Virus record (IMG/VR): IMGVR_UViG_2565956708_000007
Reading direction: 5' to 3' (one strand)
DNA length: 64,000 nucleotides
Origin: a virus
Lineage: Duplodnaviria; Heunggongvirae; Uroviricota; Caudoviricetes
Shown here: in pieces, positions 3,481 through 59,979 of the stretch
Numbering within the stretch: the first letter of the stretch is position 1
Layout of the letters: every line of letters starts with the position of its first letter
Translations under genes and position numbers: made by a program
Notes under the pieces: generated by a model
Seen by the model: the letters and a program-made list of their open reading frames with translations, nothing else
Database searches by the model: none
What the model was told of the DNA's origin: nothing

Positions 3481-5400
3481 ATGGAACAGTTCAATATCAA
3501 TAAAGGGGTGACGATCAAGCCTGGGCTTGACGTGCTTCCCCCGCCAGTGACTGATGATGAATATCGCGCATTAATGGCCGGTGAGGACCGCTATCTGATG
3601 ACGGAATCCAACACCCTGGAGGAAATCGAGGCTACGTTCTTCTATGACACGCCGATCCACTGGTGTGCTACGGATTTACTGGAGGCGATTAGTTCTACTC
3701 GTTTGCAGTTACACCGGACCATGCAGGCATTTGTCCGGGCATTGAACCAGAAGCTGAATGGTACCGGAATCTCTGCGGGGAGTGATAAAACGGGGGATGT
3801 GGCCCAGAGCGGCGCGCGCGCGATCGGCGGCGCTGAAATTGGCCGGGCACGTAACGTTAACGGGCTGCCGGTCTTGCCAGCCATTATTCCGCTCAGTGAT
3901 GGTCAGACTATCAGCATTCTGTTTCATAGCCCGACAGCGGAAAACCGGATCACAAATAGCGATACGCTGGTTGCTTTCCAGTTCTTACTGAATAAAAAAG
4001 ACGTTACTCACACCGTTGCTCCGATGAGTGGACGTGATATGACGCTGGCGCAGGTCACCATGAAACTTGCCAACCTTGCAGAGAAAAACTCGGCAAAATT
4101 CCAGCGTGCGCAGAAGAAGAAAAAAGCCCTTGTTGATGAAATAACCCAACTACAGGCTGACAGTGACCAGAAAGAGGATGCCATGAGCGACCTCGCGGAT
4201 CAGGTGGCAGCGGTAGAAGGGCAGAAGGCAGATCTGGAGCAGAAAATTAACGCTGTTGCATCGGAAGCGGATTCTCTTTATGAAGAGAATGAGCGTTTGC
4301 AGACGGAGATTGATCAGCTCAATCGCACTGGTGGGCGCGATACCATTGCTCCAGCGGGGATGACTGGTGGGCACTCTCGCGCGCTGACGGATCGCCTTGC
4401 CAGTATCAAAAATCGTATGCATATGGACGGGGAAGTGACGCTCAGTAATGGTGCATCAATGAAGCAATTCATTGGGGGCGGCGAAGGGTATATCCAGTTA
4501 ACCGATCCGGATGGCAGCGTATACATGATCAAGGCTAAATCCATACAGGGTGTGGACATGGCAGATGCGATCGGCAAGCTGTTTAAAGCCTATAAAGCGG
4601 GTAATGTATCGGAATACCTGGTCCAACCAGAAGAACATAAACCGGAAAACGTCGAACCTGAACCAGCGGAGGATACCGGTAGCTCTTCGCCTGAACCAGA
4701 AGTCTCTGTAGGTGCATATCGATATGCCCTGCAAATGCGTCCGGCGGCCCCTGGCGCAATACCTGAAGGTAACAAAGCAATTCTGCCGCGCCCTGATGAA
4801 GGTGACCCGTATTATGAATATGCACGCTACGGCATTGCTACTTACGATACCCCGCTTTCTGATCAGCAAATGAGTGAGTACGACCTGAAGTTATTGCCTC
4901 GCGAGGATTCTTTCGACTTCCTGGCGAAGACACTTACTAATGGTCCGTTTGGCAAATATGCACAAAAAGCTCTGGAGCTGGCCACCAGCTCACCAGACGA
5001 GTTCCGCGTAATGCTGAAAACTCAGTTTCAAAAAACTTTCCCCAATATTGCGTTTCCTGGGGGCGCTGGCACCGAGAAAATGGTGCAGAGCATGATCAAT
5101 GCATTGCAGGCCGAAGTCGGTGAGATTACTCAGCCAGAACCGGCTCCGGCACAGCCTGATGAAACGGTTAGCGAAGCAGATGCAGAGGCTAATAAAGCCA
5201 TTGAATATCTCAATAACGTGATGGATATACAAAGCACTGACATGGCGGAGATCCGTAACGCCCGGGGCAATGTCCGGGAAGCGATTGCAGCCCTTCAGGC
5301 TGCCGGACGTTTTGAGGAAAACGAAGAGCTGGTTAACGGCGCAGCTCGCCACCTGGCTGATCTGTTGGTAGCAATCCAGAAAGCGGGGGTAGCGGCATGA
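3481..5400 (+). CDS. darA: DarA, capsid-internal antirestriction protein
   Basis: 639 aa ORF in the hdf-darA-ddrA-ddrB order; size matches P1 DarA as recalled. Confidence 0.75.
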   Translation: MEQFNINKGVTIKPGLDVLPPPVTDDEYRALMAGEDRYLMTESNTLEEIEATFFYDTPIHWCATDLLEAISSTRLQLHRTMQAFVRALNQKLNGTGISAGSDKTGDVAQSGARAIGGAEIGRARNVNGLPVLPAIIPLSDGQTISILFHSPTAENRITNSDTLVAFQFLLNKKDVTHTVAPMSGRDMTLAQVTMKLANLAEKNSAKFQRAQKKKKALVDEITQLQADSDQKEDAMSDLADQVAAVEGQKADLEQKINAVASEADSLYEENERLQTEIDQLNRTGGRDTIAPAGMTGGHSRALTDRLASIKNRMHMDGEVTLSNGASMKQFIGGGEGYIQLTDPDGSVYMIKAKSIQGVDMADAIGKLFKAYKAGNVSEYLVQPEEHKPENVEPEPAEDTGSSSPEPEVSVGAYRYALQMRPAAPGAIPEGNKAILPRPDEGDPYYEYARYGIATYDTPLSDQQMSEYDLKLLPREDSFDFLAKTLTNGPFGKYAQKALELATSSPDEFRVMLKTQFQKTFPNIAFPGGAGTEKMVQSMINALQAEVGEITQPEPAPAQPDETVSEADAEANKAIEYLNNVMDIQSTDMAEIRNARGNVREAIAALQAAGRFEENEELVNGAARHLADLLVAIQKAGVAA

Positions 5401-57169: not shown

Positions 57170-57997
57170 TTATTTCACCGGAACAAACGGAACAGCGGTA
57201 TTACTGGTCATATACTGCGGTAATGTACCGTTCCATTTGTTGATCGCTTCCAACTCCATAACACCGGGGTTCTGGCGCAGAGCTTCACCACGTAAACGAA
57301 TGGCATCAGCTTCGGCCTGGGCTTTTGTGCGAATAGCATCAGCCTGTCCGGCAGCTTCCGCGCGCAGCATGTTGGCCTCTGCTTCACGTTGTTTGACCTC
57401 TTGCTCGCGTTGCAGGGTTTTTTGGTTTGCCGTGACTTTGGCGTTAATACTGTCAATAACTGTTGGCGGGTATTCTGGCTTACCTACATAAGAGAGGCTC
57501 ATCACCTGAATGCCGATTGGCGTCATTTCTTCCTGAATGTCTTTAAGGGCTGCATCAAGCAATTCAGATTTGCCACCGTCGATAAATTTGTCGGTGGTCA
57601 TTTTGCTGGCTAACCGGTTCAGAGCATCTGCAACCTTCTGGCGTAGATCGGTATCAGTAATATCATCTACACCTTTGCGATAGGTCTGAAATACCGTTGT
57701 GACTTTTGCTGGATCAACCTTGTAGGCTACGCCGATGTGGTAACCAATGGTTGTTCCGTCGCTCATCTGGAAGCTGAACGGCTCATCGTATGTCTTCATT
57801 TGCTTAAAGGTCGGGAAGATATAAACTTCAGTATTCAAGCCTGTCCAGTAGCGACCAACGCCAACTACTTCACCGATACCTTTATCATCCCCCAGCTTAT
57901 TTACTTTGATCCCTACGTTACCTGGCTCTACCCGATCGCATCCGGTCAGACATAAAGAACCCAAAATAATCGCTGCACTAATCAACGTTTTTTTCAT
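57170..57997 (-). CDS. plp: Plp, SPFH/band-7 lipoprotein
   Basis: Lipobox LCLTGC, SPFH-like core, Ala/Gln-rich coiled-coil tail. Confidence 0.7.
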   Translation of the reverse strand: MKKTLISAAIILGSLCLTGCDRVEPGNVGIKVNKLGDDKGIGEVVGVGRYWTGLNTEVYIFPTFKQMKTYDEPFSFQMSDGTTIGYHIGVAYKVDPAKVTTVFQTYRKGVDDITDTDLRQKVADALNRLASKMTTDKFIDGGKSELLDAALKDIQEEMTPIGIQVMSLSYVGKPEYPPTVIDSINAKVTANQKTLQREQEVKQREAEANMLRAEAAGQADAIRTKAQAEADAIRLRGEALRQNPGVMELEAINKWNGTLPQYMTSNTAVPFVPVK

Positions 57998-58214
57998 TAA
58001 TTAATTTCCTGGTTTTTTCACGAAAAAAGACTACTGCGAAAGCCGGGTAAATGAGCGCGAGAAGGACTCCCAACAATACAAGTATTGTGCTGTTAGATGA
58101 GATCATATTTGGCAAAAGCCAAACATACAGAACCAGTGACACAATCAAACAGAGGACGGCATAAATATATAACCGCACCCATAGCGTTCGACATTTGTTC
58201 GGATTGTTCTGCAT
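57978..58214 (-). CDS. upl: Upl-like small membrane protein
   Basis: 78 aa two-TM ORF upstream of plp. Confidence 0.4.
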   Translation of the reverse strand: MQNNPNKCRTLWVRLYIYAVLCLIVSLVLYVWLLPNMISSNSTILVLLGVLLALIYPAFAVVFFREKTRKLINEKNVD

Positions 58215-58359
58215 CCTCTCACTCCATTATTTAACGAATAAAAAAGCTGCGGTGCCGGGTGCCTCCCGGTGTCCTTTGGCTGGTTATCCACCGTGGACGG
58301 GGAAACAAGGAGAAATGAATGGACTGATATAACCATTTCCCCGCGTGCGCTTAGCCGCA

Positions 58360-59141
58360 TTCACCGCAACGGAAAGAGCATTCTTGGTGGACCTGTAGAT
58401 TGGGATATGAACCCGTTACAGGAGAATGCTCTTACCTGTTACGTGCTCCGTTTCGTGGAGCTAACGGCGGGTGATCGGGCCGCACCAGGCTGGACTTATT
58501 TCAGCGTTATGCTCATGCCAGAGAATCAAACTGTGATGGTCGGTGCTGAACTCCGACACAGGGTTGTAGCAAGCCCCGCAAAGCGCGCACTACTGTAGTT
58601 GCGGCACATCAGCCTGTGCATTCACCACAATGTTGAGAACACTGGTTGTCACGCTGCAACGCAACATTTATTCGTAGATTGGGATATGACCCCGTTACGC
58701 CAGTGTTCTCAACGTTGTAGTGCCGGTTACGGTTCCGGCCAGGCCTCTTCCTCAACGGGGTGTTCTCCATACGGACTACCGTTTATTGGTCGTTCCTGCG
58801 GTTTATGTTGTGAAGCCAGATGCTTATCTTCTGGTTGCTTCAAAGAGCTGCACTTCATCACAACGGTAAGAGCACTCGATGCATTTAAGCCAAGCCCCAT
58901 AATGGAGAATGCCCTTACCTGTTGTGTTGTGATGACCGGTGCTGATCTCCGGCTTGCGGTTATTTCAGACTCTCACGGGCGTTTAATTGCCCCGCCGAAC
59001 AGCTCTTTTCCGCAATAGCTGCAATGTCTTTCGCGCATCAGCCTGCGCATTCATCACAACGGTAAGGGTACTTCGTAGGGATTCGAACCCTCTGCCAAGC
59101 TCGGCGATCTCCGACGTCGCAAAATACCCTTACCTGTTGTG
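58360..59141. repeat. Family of four inverted-repeat hairpin elements sharing the stem motif CACAAC(A)GGTAAGGG / CCCTTACC(T)GTTGTG, three with a tRNA T-arm-like loop
   Basis: Stems at about 58360-58380/58431-58445, 58628-58645/58700-58717, 58856-58873/58912-58926, 59055-59068/59127-59141; loops contain GGGAT(A/T)(T/C)GA(A/C)CCC. Confidence 0.6.
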
Positions 59142-59142
59142 C

Positions 59143-59218
59143 TGGTGCCGATTAACGGACTCGAACCGCTGACATCCTGCTTACAAGGCAGGCGCTCTAC
59201 CAACTGAGCTAAACCGGC
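59143..59218 (-). tRNA. tRNA-Thr (anticodon UGU)
   Basis: GCCGGTTTAGCTCAGTTGGTAGAGCGCCTGCCTTGTAAGCAGGATGTCAGCGGTTCGAGTCCGTTAATCGGCACCA, full cloverleaf with encoded CCA. Confidence 0.9.
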
Positions 59219-59220
59219 AT

Positions 59221-59296
59221 TGGCGATGGTGGATGGATTTGAACCATCGACCCGTTGATTAACAGTCAACCGCTCTAACCGCTGAGCTACACCATC
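59221..59296 (-). tRNA. tRNA-Asn (anticodon GUU)
   Basis: GATGGTGTAGCTCAGCGGTTAGAGCGGTTGACTGTTAATCAACGGGTCGATGGTTCAAATCCATCCACCATCGCCA. Confidence 0.9.
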
Positions 59297-59951
59297 ACTT
59301 GCCGGGTACGTCTCCGGCGAGGGCTTCCACCTCCGTATGCTTTTCGGCGCACCGCGCCCTGGCTGCAATTCGGTAACAGGGGATGCATAACCCTGGCTTC
59401 CAGCGTGATTAGCGCTTTCAGCATGACGGGATATACCCGTAAATTCGTGGAACTGTACCCAAAGTGCTGTTAAGCACCGCTGTTACGCTGAAAAGAAGAC
59501 GCAACAGGAAAGGACGCTGACCAACAGATGGCCCCTTCTCGTTCATCTGGTTAATCACACCAGCGCCCTTACCTGTTGTGCCTCCCCGTTCCCTAATACA
59601 CAGACGGGGACACTCTGCGGTCGATTTTTTTGACGGGGGACGACTCATACCCCGTGGCATCTGGTTTCTTAGGCCGCTACCATCATCAGATCATCGTTTG
59701 CATTTACTTTAATGGTCAGTTTCTAAACCGCCGCAAAGTCGCTAACCATGACGAAAACCCTGAAAAAAACGCCCACCCGAAGATGGGCAAACTGGAAGCT
59801 CGTAACGCACTTCGGCGTTGCCACTTAGGCGCATGGTCAACCTGGCAACTCGGTGGTTTGTCTGGGAGGACTAGGCCCAGCCATGCTTACCGCCGCGCCT
59901 GTCGCGGCTAACAGCTAAATCGCTCTATAAATCACGATTCATTGAGGCGAT

Positions 59952-59979
59952 ATTACACTAATAAATTTATTAGAGCAAT
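59952..59979. promoter_or_regulatory. Overlapping inverted pair of C1 operators (ATTACACTAATAAATTTATTAGAGCAAT) on the dmt stop codon
   Basis: Right half is a perfect match to the reverse consensus; sits at the head of the minus-strand tRNA / plp / ban operon. Confidence 0.7.

Follow-up and report, generated by a model that had tools for sequence, protein, structure and literature searches.

Prophage sRNAs of the STnc100/PasD family (Rfam RF02076; Zhu, Shabalina & Storz, bioRxiv 10.64898/2026.05.13.724894) are processed and Hfq-bound, and in that literature PasA is reported to be cut from a longer transcript. Bacterial Y RNAs with a tRNA-like domain (YrlA, RF02553; PMC4201824) combine a long stem formed by distal sequences with an apical module that mimics tRNA arms, and also occur in phages. 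tmRNA (ssrA) is known in one-piece and two-piece forms, and mycobacteriophage DS6A carries an RNA that has the tRNA-like domain only (PMC4131195, PMC11915505). In the 64,000-nucleotide stretch of phage DNA analysed here (the window), we found RNA modules that bear partial resemblance to each of these systems, arranged as a non-coding array on the minus (transcribed) strand of the C1-controlled ban/tRNA operon of a P1-like phage. In order, the array comprises a DicF-position leader, a tmRNA-like module (tmL), a long hairpin (E5), tRNA-Asn, tRNA-Thr and then alternating E hairpins and copies of a second module, the S-domain (E4-S4-E3-S3-E2-S2-E1-S1), followed by the first protein gene. Such arrays occur in many unrelated phages, and neither Rfam nor the literature that we searched in full text describes them.

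An earlier note had described four inverted-repeat elements in this region. All four were confirmed: in minus-strand RNA sense they are E4 59141-59055, E3 58934-58856, E2 58722-58623 and E1 58443-58365. A further copy of the stem motif at 59566-59580, also listed in the note, is the 5′ arm of a fifth complete hairpin, E5 (59580-59500), with arms CACAACAGGUAAGGGCGCUG / CAGCGUCCUUUCCUGUUGCG. Folding of 59480-59600 (E5), 59045-59145 (E4), 58850-58935 (E3), 58615-58730 (E2) and 58355-58450 (E1) gave energies of -50.8, -42.7, -35.1, -49.3 and -37.1 kcal/mol, respectively, with z = -5.6, -5.2, -4.8, -6.2 and -4.7, and 0 of 200 shuffles were as stable. The whole 910-nt stretch had z = -6.7 and kept all four hairpins in the minimum-energy fold. 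The 15-mer CCCTTACCTGTTGTG occurs three times exactly, and five times with up to 3 mismatches against 1.3 expected by chance. The 5′ arm of E4 starts 2 nt after tRNA-Thr, and its stem has a bulged A. E2 has fully covaried arms, CACUACAACGUUGAGAACACUGG / CCAGUGUUCUCAACAUUGUGGUG.

The apical sequences, which we refer to as cargo, differ among the five hairpins. The note had assigned T-arm-like loops to three elements and a terminal CCACCA to one. However, only E4 has a canonical T-loop (GGGTTCGAATCCC, 59090-59078), within a canonical T-arm (AGGGUUCGAAUCCCU) that abuts the 3′ arm. E1 has GGGTTCATATCCC and E2 has GGGGTCATATCCC, which lack the canonical A58. In E1, the cargo is an inner helix CCUGUA/UACAGG capped by GGGUUCAUAUCCC and followed by UCCACCA, which lies inside the loop (58391-58385) and not at an RNA end; a small hairpin, CUCCACGAAACGGAG (58460-58446), precedes E1. 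The E2 cargo comprises a T-like hairpin, GGGGUCAUAUCCC, plus a second hairpin, and the E3 cargo, UCCAUUAUGGGGCUUGGCUUAAAUGCAUCG, is shared with P7 and Shigella phage Sf16.

The transcript carrying the array starts at the ban-operon promoter, where a C1 operator (ATTGCTCTAATAAATTT, 59963-59979, minus strand) corresponds to the Oban/Op72 operator and Pban annotated in P1 and P7. A terminator-like hairpin followed by U7 (GCCCAUCUUCGGGUGGGC, 59763-59788, minus strand) ends a leader that P1 annotates as 'dicF-like region'. This label reflects homology to the sequence upstream of dicF in the K-12 Qin prophage and not to DicF itself; the Rfam DicF model gave no hit. Next on the minus strand is tmL (59584-59759), which has a 5′ helix GGUUUU/GAAACU, a tag frame at 59701-59669 (ANDDLMMVAA*), an H-type pseudoknot at 59655-59620 and a terminal hairpin at 59609-59584. 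Beyond E5 lie tRNA-Asn (GTT; 59221-59296, minus strand) and tRNA-Thr (TGT; 59143-59218, minus strand), detected by ARAGORN and by the Rfam tRNA model at 74.5 and 72.9 bits, respectively.

The hairpins alternate with S-domains, also on the minus strand. S4 (58926-59060) consists of a closing helix GUUGUGA/UCACAAC, a linker UGAAU, hairpin hpA GCGCAGGCUGAUGCGC (59048-59033), a variable region and hairpin hpB CCGGAGAUCAGCACCGG (58952-58936), then UCA; this piece is 97-98% identical to a stretch in lambdoid and Stx phages. S3 (58807-58864) is short and degenerate, with linker UGAAG and an hpB-like hairpin CCAGAAGAUAAGCAUCUGG at 58834-58816, and was assigned by architecture only. In S2 (58530-58631), hpA is GCACAGGCUGAUGUGC (58619-58604), whose stem covaries with that of S4, and hpB is GUCGGAGUUCAGCACCGAC (58557-58539). 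The terminal copy, S1 (58240-58370), has a closing helix GUUGCGG/CCGCAGC, GGUGAAU, hpB CCGGGAGGCACCCGG (58269-58255) and a U6 tail, and sits directly upstream of a 78-aa ORF that starts at 58214. Across 57 sequences, the five inner closing-helix pairs of the S-domain showed 11-27 double-sided changes with at most 5 non-pairs, and the covariation score was 0.299, against 0.083 for shuffled and at most 0.113 for slid partners; the outermost helix was the most variable part. hpB showed compensatory changes, and the two hairpin loops are complementary (GCUGAU/AUCAGC), with a covarying variant (GUCGA/UCGAC). The 21-nt core of the S-domain is identical in at least 120 viral contigs and at least 120 species genomes, mostly Proteobacteria. 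Of note, this core is used as a CRISPR spacer in a Halomonas genome, which shows that hosts target it. ORFs downstream of the S-domain in 73 genomes were heterogeneous, arguing against the 5′ UTR of one particular gene. The CUGAUG in hpA recalls a hammerhead core, but hpA is a covarying hairpin and, judged by inspection only, the junction strands do not fit. By our own estimate, the similarities of GGUAAGAGC to RNase P RNA and of the tmL loop UGAUUAA to host tmRNA are both short enough to be chance.

Comparison with relatives revealed selection on the E stems at the RNA level. In 63 well-folding relatives anchored on the neighbouring module, there were 1192 Watson-Crick and 138 G.U pairs against 8 A.C mismatches, and every stem position showed 3-6 pair types, arguing for selection on RNA of this strand. 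Arms were conserved while cargo was hypervariable, with 74 unique elements among 94, found in P1-like, lambdoid, P22-like, T1-like, N4-like, Vi1-like, FelixO1-like and 9NA-like phages. Canonical T-arms were present in 16 of 144 unique cargos (11%), against 0 on the antisense strand and 0.08 expected in shuffles; their density of 1.75 per kb, compared with a background of 0.062 per kb, represents about 28-fold enrichment, and they always abutted the stem. The hairpins occupy the same slots as tRNA genes in the array, as illustrated by a tRNA-Ser-like sequence in P7/D6 and by a Massilia tRNA-Gly flanked by complementary sequences that could close a stem around it.

These findings partly support the interpretation in the earlier note. 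The region is non-coding, it lies in the C1-controlled polycistronic tRNA operon, the hairpins are structured RNAs on the minus strand and their tRNA flavour is real. However, the proposal that the elements are decayed tRNA 3′ halves was not supported. The shared stem motif is not tRNA-like, ARAGORN found only tRNA-Met, tRNA-Thr and tRNA-Asn in the window, and the Rfam tRNA model (RF00005) gave no hit on E1-E5 even at E <= 10. Only 1 of the 5 window copies carries a canonical T-arm, and in phage Ro157c2YLVW the T-like tip of E1 is deleted while the stem and UCCACCA remain. The stems also interlock with the S-domain, which the note did not mention.

We tentatively propose that the E stems, of 16-23 bp with free-to-vary cargo, act as structural punctuation of a polycistronic RNA array. 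In this view, they would fold first during transcription and so insulate neighbouring modules from misfolding, give nuclease-resistant ends and define endonuclease sites: double-strand cleavage by RNase III within the stems, RNase E in the conserved single-stranded GAAU linker and RNase P where a T-arm stacks on the stem. The precursor would thereby be cut into tRNAs, stable hairpin RNAs and S-domain RNAs, the last of which (S1) resembles an STnc100/PasD-type terminator-ended sRNA. Without expression or end-mapping data, processing itself, the nucleases involved and any trans-acting role of released hairpins are inferred. The proposal draws on the stability and covariation of the stems, the interchangeability of their slots with tRNAs and the resemblance of S1 to a processed sRNA family; stems of about 20 bp are generally RNase III substrates. 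Several findings weigh against it. The one P1 transcriptome preprint that we found does not mention plp, upl or RNA species from this region. RNase III and RNase E do not need the near-identical arm sequences seen in unrelated phages, so something more specific may read them, and hypervariable cargo and T-arm enrichment suggest an additional trans-acting role. Furthermore, the base of each E stem (CACAAC/GUUGUG) competes with the closing helix of the adjacent S-domain (GUUGUGG/CCACAAC), so cleavage at GAAU would destroy a helix that clearly covaries elsewhere.

Other explanations appear less likely. The hairpins could be decoys, as the note suggested for tRNA-targeting nucleases, or baits; after release they would present a tRNA elbow or acceptor-T minihelix and titrate or misdirect host factors that read tRNA shape, such as tRNA-targeting defence nucleases, RNase P, TruB/TrmA, the CCA-adding enzyme or the ribosome. 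The sense-strand T-arms, positioned as in an acceptor/T coaxial stack, the perfect T-arm of E4, the UCCACCA after the inner helix of E1, the location of arrays in phage tRNA clusters and the adjacent tmRNA mimic are consistent with this idea, but it remains doubtful because about 89% of cargos, including E3 and E5, have no T-arm, no conserved anticodon-like loop is present, the tRNA and YrlA models are negative on the hairpins and the E1 tip can be lost without loss of the hairpin. The arms might alternatively exist mainly as a folding switch that times or gates the folding or processing of flanking S-domains or tRNA trailers. In enteric arrays, GUUGUGG can pair either with the upstream CACAAC of the E stem base or with the downstream CCACAAC of the S closing helix, and the same two-way complementarity, with different sequences, flanks the Massilia tRNA-Gly. 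This too is unlikely, as the minimum-energy fold of the whole region keeps full E stems and only 6-7 of about 20 stem pairs are shared with the S helix, leaving the inner 13 bp and the cargo unexplained. More speculatively, and with low probability, the E hairpins, displaying tRNA-elbow mimics or whole tRNAs, the S-domain, a junction RNA with candidate kissing loops whose core is identical across alpha-, beta- and gamma-proteobacterial prophages, and the tmRNA mimic could form three interlocking parts of an RNA toolkit that is not mere spacers but acts on the host's tRNA and ribosome-rescue machinery, for example by sequestering SmpB, S1 or RNase R, by re-templating tagging or by self-processing the array. 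Conservation at the level of the S-domain core is normally seen only in RNAs that touch the translation or transcription machinery, or in ribozyme cores.

A DNA-level origin, in which the arms are terminal inverted repeats of miniature transposable cassettes or recombination boundaries for module swapping, could account for near-identical arms with hypervariable content in several copies per genome of unrelated phage families, and for the mosaic module order among P1, P7, D6 and Ro157c2YLVW. It is improbable given the strand-specific excess of G.U over A.C and the single-strand distribution of T-arm cargo; in addition, stems covary completely while the neighbouring module stays constant, and no target-site duplications, and no transposase next to the arrays, were seen. 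We also considered nut/rrn-like antitermination, in which a boxA (UGCUCUUU) in the 3′ arm, followed by a boxB-like hairpin, would load NusB/S10 for read-through of Rho sites and terminators in the long untranslated operon. The commonest 3′ arm, GUGCUCUUUCC, keeps the boxA U at the cost of a U.U mismatch, a variant reads CUCUUACC, like lambda boxA, and Sf16 has UGCUCUUUAAAAU; a 5-bp hairpin follows 14 nt later, the elements in mEp460 lie just downstream of the repressor gene, where nutL would be expected, and the ban operon contains internal terminators. However, when sampling was anchored on the neighbouring module instead of the arm, many of the 126 distinct 3′ arms lacked any boxA-like core while the hairpin was kept, and the putative boxA is buried in a stable stem. 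None of the E, S or tmL motifs was found in the HK022 early region that holds the put sites, a comparison of sequence and not of structure. Antitermination is very unlikely. The possibility that the repeats reflect codon conservation in plus-strand genes is remote. Plus-strand ORFs of 139 and 109 aa do exist, and P1, RCS47 and JL22 annotate CDSs here, but the ORFs have no Pfam match, homologous segments fall into different reading frames in P1, P7, D6 and Ro157c2YLVW, ORF boundaries differ in every relative, P7 annotators left the region empty and the repeats pair as RNA on the opposite strand. The gene that the note called upl is the 78-aa minus-strand ORF, whereas in the reference P1 record upl and plp are plus-strand ORFs drawn on top of this RNA region.

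About a fifth of complete E. coli genomes (1106 of 5426) carry matches to a 290-nt piece of this array, and RefSeq annotates nothing under the matching hairpin and S-domain parts; in several phage records the region is covered by what are probably spurious small ORFs, including upl and plp. The analysis defines at least two RNA structures supported by covariation, the E hairpin and the S-domain, and a tmRNA-like RNA without a tRNA-like domain, none of which matches an Rfam 15 family at its curated threshold, and links STnc100/PasD and the DicF locus to a much larger modular system.

Of the known systems, STnc100/PasD resembles S1 alone. S1 has the same plan (GGUGAAU, a 5′ hairpin, a variable middle, the hairpin CCGGGAGGCACCCGG, a closing helix and a U-tail) and lies in a phage operon leader, and a full STnc100 hit occurs in the equivalent RNA island of Klebsiella phage Magnus. 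However, S1 scored 37.8 bits against a gathering score of 47 (E = 6e-6; model positions 31-147 of 206), S4, S3 and S2 gave no hit, S4 and S2 have no terminator, and the E hairpins are not part of that family. The closing helix and loop-loop complementarity are not among the features reported in the parts of that preprint that we examined. An S1-type domain also occurs in P7, and in K-12 Qin it lies between dicF and dicB, exactly as S1 lies before the first ORF here, although Qin has no E hairpins, tRNAs or tmRNA-like module in that locus. YrlA shares with the E hairpins a long stem and, in some cargos, T-arm mimicry. The only YrlA hit (25.6 bits, gathering score 69) spans the two real tRNAs, the 5′ arms read (C)ACAACAGGUAAGRGC, without the GNCGAA Ro-binding motif, and no TROVE/Ro gene is annotated in the 6.5-kb homologous stretch of P1. 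D-arm mimicry is absent from most cargos, and the YrlA order is T arm, acceptor-like stem, D arm, whereas here the T-arm abuts the closing stem.

The tmL module shares with tmRNA an A-rich run before a GCA resume codon, a 10-codon tag AN(D/E)xxxxxxA followed by a stop in a helix-5-like stem, and then an H-type pseudoknot. Forty-three copies gave 11 tag variants, all exactly 10 codons, and the pseudoknot stems occurred in about 6 and 5 mutually compensating types. Unlike tmRNA, tmL has no acceptor stem, T-arm or CCA. ARAGORN found no tmRNA in the window or in any of the 14 tmL-bearing relatives scanned, and Rfam tmRNA models scored 14-35 bits, below threshold, with the tmRNA_permuted model aligning the tag region only. 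The 5′ end pairs locally (RGUUUU/RAAACU, covarying in Sf16), no consistent acceptor pairing was found with the UCCACCA of E1 or with a GGGCCUA near the promoter, and the stand-alone copy in Aeromonas phage pAh6-C has nothing else between two promoter-like repeats. tmL is the inverse of the DS6A case, and the tmRNA database papers that we examined name phage tmRNAs only from mycobacteriophages and Bacillus phage G. Finally, the array recalls the processing stems that typically bracket functional RNAs in rRNA operons and phage T7 early RNA, and the small stable non-tRNA RNAs of the T4 tRNA cluster. In contrast to these, the arm sequences here are shared across unrelated phage families, the loops carry variable cargo and the stems interlock with a second, ultraconserved module.

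The stretch was 99.5-99.7% identical to P1-like phages (vB_EcoM-813R1, RCS47) and 99% identical to P1 itself. On the minus strand, the C1 operator and Pban, next to dmt, are followed by an untranslated stretch of about 1.7 kb that holds tRNA-Asn and tRNA-Thr, and then by a 78-aa ORF, an SPFH/Band-7 lipoprotein, a tRNA with a CAT anticodon, and ban, indicating that the RNA sense is the minus strand, as the earlier note had assumed. Of note, the 78-aa putative membrane protein and the SPFH/Band-7 lipoprotein (Pfam PF01145, E = 1e-30; 57170-58214, minus strand) occupy the place where P1 and P7 have tciA/terB, tciB and tciC.

All four inverted repeats described in the earlier note were found where it placed them, and the additional copy of the motif that it listed at 59566-59580 proved to be the 5' arm of a fifth complete hairpin. 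In RNA sense, the hairpins (E hairpins) are E5 (59580-59500), E4 (59141-59055), E3 (58934-58856), E2 (58722-58623) and E1 (58443-58365). Each folds 4.7-6.2 standard deviations better than dinucleotide shuffles, none of 200 of which did as well, and the whole 910-nt stretch has z = -6.7 and keeps the four hairpins in the global minimum-energy fold. The 15-mer arm occurs three times exactly, whereas E2 has the same architecture with different letters on both arms (GUUGAGAACACUGG / CCAGUGUUCUCAAC), so compensation is already visible inside the window. Although the earlier note described three loops as T-arm-like and one element as ending in CCACCA, only E4 has a canonical T-loop; E1 and E2 have GGGUUCAUAUCCC and GGGGUCAUAUCCC, and UCCACCA lies inside the E1 loop.

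We next asked whether the region could encode protein. The plus strand has ORFs of 139 and 109 aa, and in the reference P1 record (NC_005856) this very region is annotated as upl and plp, drawn antisense to the operon and over the RNA array (2659-3228 of L001, the fetched P1 locus; window 58269-59018, plus strand). These ORFs have no Pfam match, their homologous segments fall into two or three different frames in P1, P7, D6 and Ro157c2YLVW, and the ORF limits differ in every relative. The P7 annotators left the region empty, and RefSeq annotates nothing under the matching hairpin and S-domain parts in E. coli genomes (the S-domain being the second module described below). Relatives therefore do not carry intact genes here, and upl and plp are probably not genes. 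In phage mEp460, two annotated hypothetical proteins, gp36 and gp37 (locus L002, 2878-3431), lie antisense over E and S modules directly downstream of the repressor gene, where an N gene and nutL would be expected; no N-like gene is annotated there.

Fragments of the arms, together with the sequence just downstream, occur in 208 phage records spanning P1-like, lambdoid, P22-like (HK620), T1-like, N4-like, Vi1-like (Ackermannviridae), FelixO1-like and 9NA-like phages, almost always in unannotated DNA and often inside or beside tRNA clusters. A pattern scan of viral contigs returned 94 complete elements, 74 of them unique, in which the arms are nearly invariant (ACAACAGGUAAGAGCAUUG ... CAGUGCUCUUUCCGUUGUGG), with a conserved bulged A and, in the majority form, a U.U mismatch, whereas the apical 'cargo' ranges from about 35 to 180 nt and is different almost every time. 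To sample without forcing the arm sequence, we anchored on the conserved hairpin just downstream, which gave 126 different 3' arms, 63 of which have an upstream partner at -24 kcal/mol or better that beats all 30 shuffles. In those 63, every stem position shows 3-6 different pair types, and there are 138 G.U pairs against 8 A.C mismatches, an asymmetry that is predicted by selection on RNA of this strand and that a DNA-level repeat would not produce.

The tRNA-like character of the hairpins is real but partial. A strict T-arm (G53-TTCRANN-C61 plus three more pairs) was present in 16 of 144 unique cargos and absent from all 144 on the antisense strand, with 0.08 expected in shuffles. Its density was 1.75 per kb against 0.062 per kb in all fetched DNA, a background that includes real tRNA genes, and the T-arm always abuts one arm, as if stacked on the stem. 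The cargo in Klebsiella phage Magnus looks like a class II tRNA without free ends, and in this phage a stretch of about 3 kb upstream of the tRNA genes (locus L007, 1650-4880), although annotated with eleven tiny hypothetical proteins, is instead packed with RNA modules: the tmRNA-like module tmL, an E hairpin with tRNA-like cargo, S-domains, further T-arm-like hairpins, and a full STnc100 hit at 4068-4282 (52.9 bits). In P7 and D6 (L005 1638-1724 and L004 1638-1724), a class II tRNA-Ser(UGA)-like gene with an encoded CCA sits in an array slot between an S-domain and an E hairpin; ARAGORN calls it, P7 does not annotate it, and the window and P1 lack it. In a Massilia genome, a complete tRNA-Gly is flanked by complementary sequences (CACACA / UGUGUG) that could close a stem around it. 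Escherichia phage IME11 has, in a 2-kb unannotated gap together with tmL, E and S modules, a tRNA-like sequence (locus L010, about 1925-2003) with a 7-bp acceptor stem (UCCGGUG/CGCCGGA), a canonical T-arm and ACCA but a core about 10 nt too short, which ARAGORN does not call. However, ARAGORN, the Rfam tRNA model and the YrlA model found nothing in E1-E5, most cargos have no T-arm, and in Ro157c2YLVW the T-like tip of E1 is deleted while the rest of the hairpin stays. Thus, contrary to the suggestion in the earlier note that the elements look like decayed or repurposed tRNA 3' halves, the arms are not tRNA-derived, and tRNA-like tips are a recurrent option rather than the essence of the element.

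A second module lies between the hairpins. Each hairpin is followed by GGUGAAU and a 5-bp hairpin, hpA (GCGCAGGCUGAUGCGC; in the S2 copy it is GCACAGGCUGAUGUGC, a compensated stem), then by a variable stretch, a second hairpin, hpB (CCGGAGAUCAGCACCGG), CCA or UCA, and CACAAC-type sequence. We refer to this unit as the S-domain (window 58926-59060 and 58530-58631, minus strand; fetched loci L235-L354). The sequence just before UGAAU pairs with the sequence just after CCA: on 57 S-domain cores, each with a different closing-helix sequence, the five inner pairs of this closing helix show 11-27 double-sided changes with at most 5 non-pairs, and the covariation score is 0.299, against 0.083 for shuffled partners and at most 0.113 for slid partners. 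hpB also shows compensatory changes. The two hairpin loops are complementary (GCUGAU / AUCAGC), with a covarying variant (GUCGA / UCGAC) and a third type in P7 (ACUGA / UCAGU), suggesting a likely loop-loop (kissing) contact, although the covariation for it is limited.

The 21-nt core of the S-domain is identical in prophage-like regions across alpha-, beta- and gamma-proteobacteria; the genomes include Enterobacterales, many Pseudomonas, many beta- and alpha-proteobacteria, Xanthomonadales, Halomonas and a few MAGs of other phyla. In Halomonas olivaria (AP019416.1; locus L275, about 6841 on the minus strand of the locus), the conserved core GAGTGAATGCGCAGGCTGATGCGCACGTAGCGAC is a spacer between repeats GTTCCCCGCAGGCGCGGGGATGAACCG, which by eye we judge to be a type I-E CRISPR array; hosts therefore target this phage element. 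No Rfam family matches these distant copies, no paper in the literature searched contains the sequence, and the genes downstream of solitary copies are heterogeneous. Only the terminal copy in the window, S1 (58370-58240), which ends in a U-tract just before the 78-aa ORF, resembles a known RNA, matching STnc100 at 37.8 bits, below the gathering score of 47; STnc100 is related to the Hfq-bound prophage sRNA PasD. The same S1-type domain, not annotated in K-12, lies between dicF and dicB in the K-12 Qin prophage, and the P1-type leader between Pban and a terminator-like hairpin (59788-59763) is homologous to the sequence upstream of dicF (window 59763-59960, minus strand; K-12 Qin locus L358, 13260-13590), explaining the 'dicF-like region' label in P1. 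This leader ends in its own terminator where DicF would be, so it may encode a different sRNA at the DicF position.

The two modules interlock. In enteric arrays, the last 6-7 nt of each hairpin's 3' arm (GUUGUGG) are also the 5' strand of the next S-domain's closing helix, and the 3' strand of that helix (CCACAAC) is in turn the start of the next hairpin, making the two pairings mutually exclusive. The same two-way complementarity, with other letters, flanks the Massilia tRNA. In the minimum-energy fold of the window region, the hairpins win.

Between the terminator-like hairpin (59788-59763) and E5 lies a unit of about 175 nt (59759-59584, minus strand), the tmRNA-like module tmL. It begins with a local helix GGUUUU/GAAACU, after which an A-rich run UAAAU leads into a GCA resume codon and the frame GCAAACGAUGAUCUGAUGAUGGUAGCGGCCUAA, encoding ANDDLMMVAA*, the stop codon of which lies in a helix-5-like stem; an H-type pseudoknot and a final hairpin follow. 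The unit occurs in 293 phage records from many families. Forty-three copies in the fetched loci give 11 tag variants, every one exactly 10 codons of the form AN(D/E)xxxxxxA*, and the two pseudoknot stems occur in about six and five mutually compensating versions. Rfam tmRNA models align only the tag region and stay below threshold, and ARAGORN found no tmRNA in the window or in any of the 14 relatives that carry the unit. In Aeromonas phage pAh6-C the unit stands alone between two promoter-like repeats, and in DS8 and Sf16 it has its own sigma-70-like promoter. It therefore looks like a tmRNA message domain without the tRNA-like domain; the tmRNA database papers that we checked name phage tmRNAs only from mycobacteriophages and Bacillus phage G.

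The E hairpins are thus transcribed-strand RNA structures maintained by selection that are slot-equivalents of tRNAs in a polycistronic array, are flanked by a single-stranded GAAU linker, and belong to an array ending in an STnc100/PasD-type module. We tentatively infer that the stems act as punctuation, insulating module folding, protecting RNA ends, and defining cleavage by RNase III (in the stems), RNase E (in the linker) and RNase P (where a T-arm stacks on the stem), which would release tRNAs, hairpin RNAs and S RNAs. However, processing alone does not explain why the arm sequences are so similar in unrelated phages, nor why the cargo is so variable and so often tRNA-like. For that reason, a decoy model and, with slightly less support, a folding-switch model cannot be set aside, although we consider each of them unlikely. 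A DNA-cassette model is less likely still, being disfavoured by the strand-specific signatures. Some 3' arms resemble the rrn or lambda boxA (UGCUCUUUAAAAU in Shigella phage Sf16, locus L008, 2520-2545; UGCUCUUUCC in E1; and UGCUCUUACC in E3), a resemblance that is not general across the family but might matter for the enteric subgroup; a boxA/nut model fails once sampling is unbiased and appears very doubtful. The coding model is essentially excluded.

We found no Rfam family or paper describing the E hairpin, the general S-domain or the tmRNA-like module without a tRNA-like domain, although the literature searched was incomplete and prior description elsewhere cannot be excluded. Structured non-coding RNAs in phage tRNA operons are already known, and the main value of the present observations lies in the breadth and conservation of the system to which the hairpins led. 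The closest known counterparts are STnc100/PasD, for the terminal S-domain only; YrlA-type Y RNAs, for the idea of a long stem carrying a tRNA mimic; tmRNA, for the upstream module; and rRNA and T7-type processing stems, for the proposed mechanism. For every family, membership fails on at least one of the defining features that we tested.
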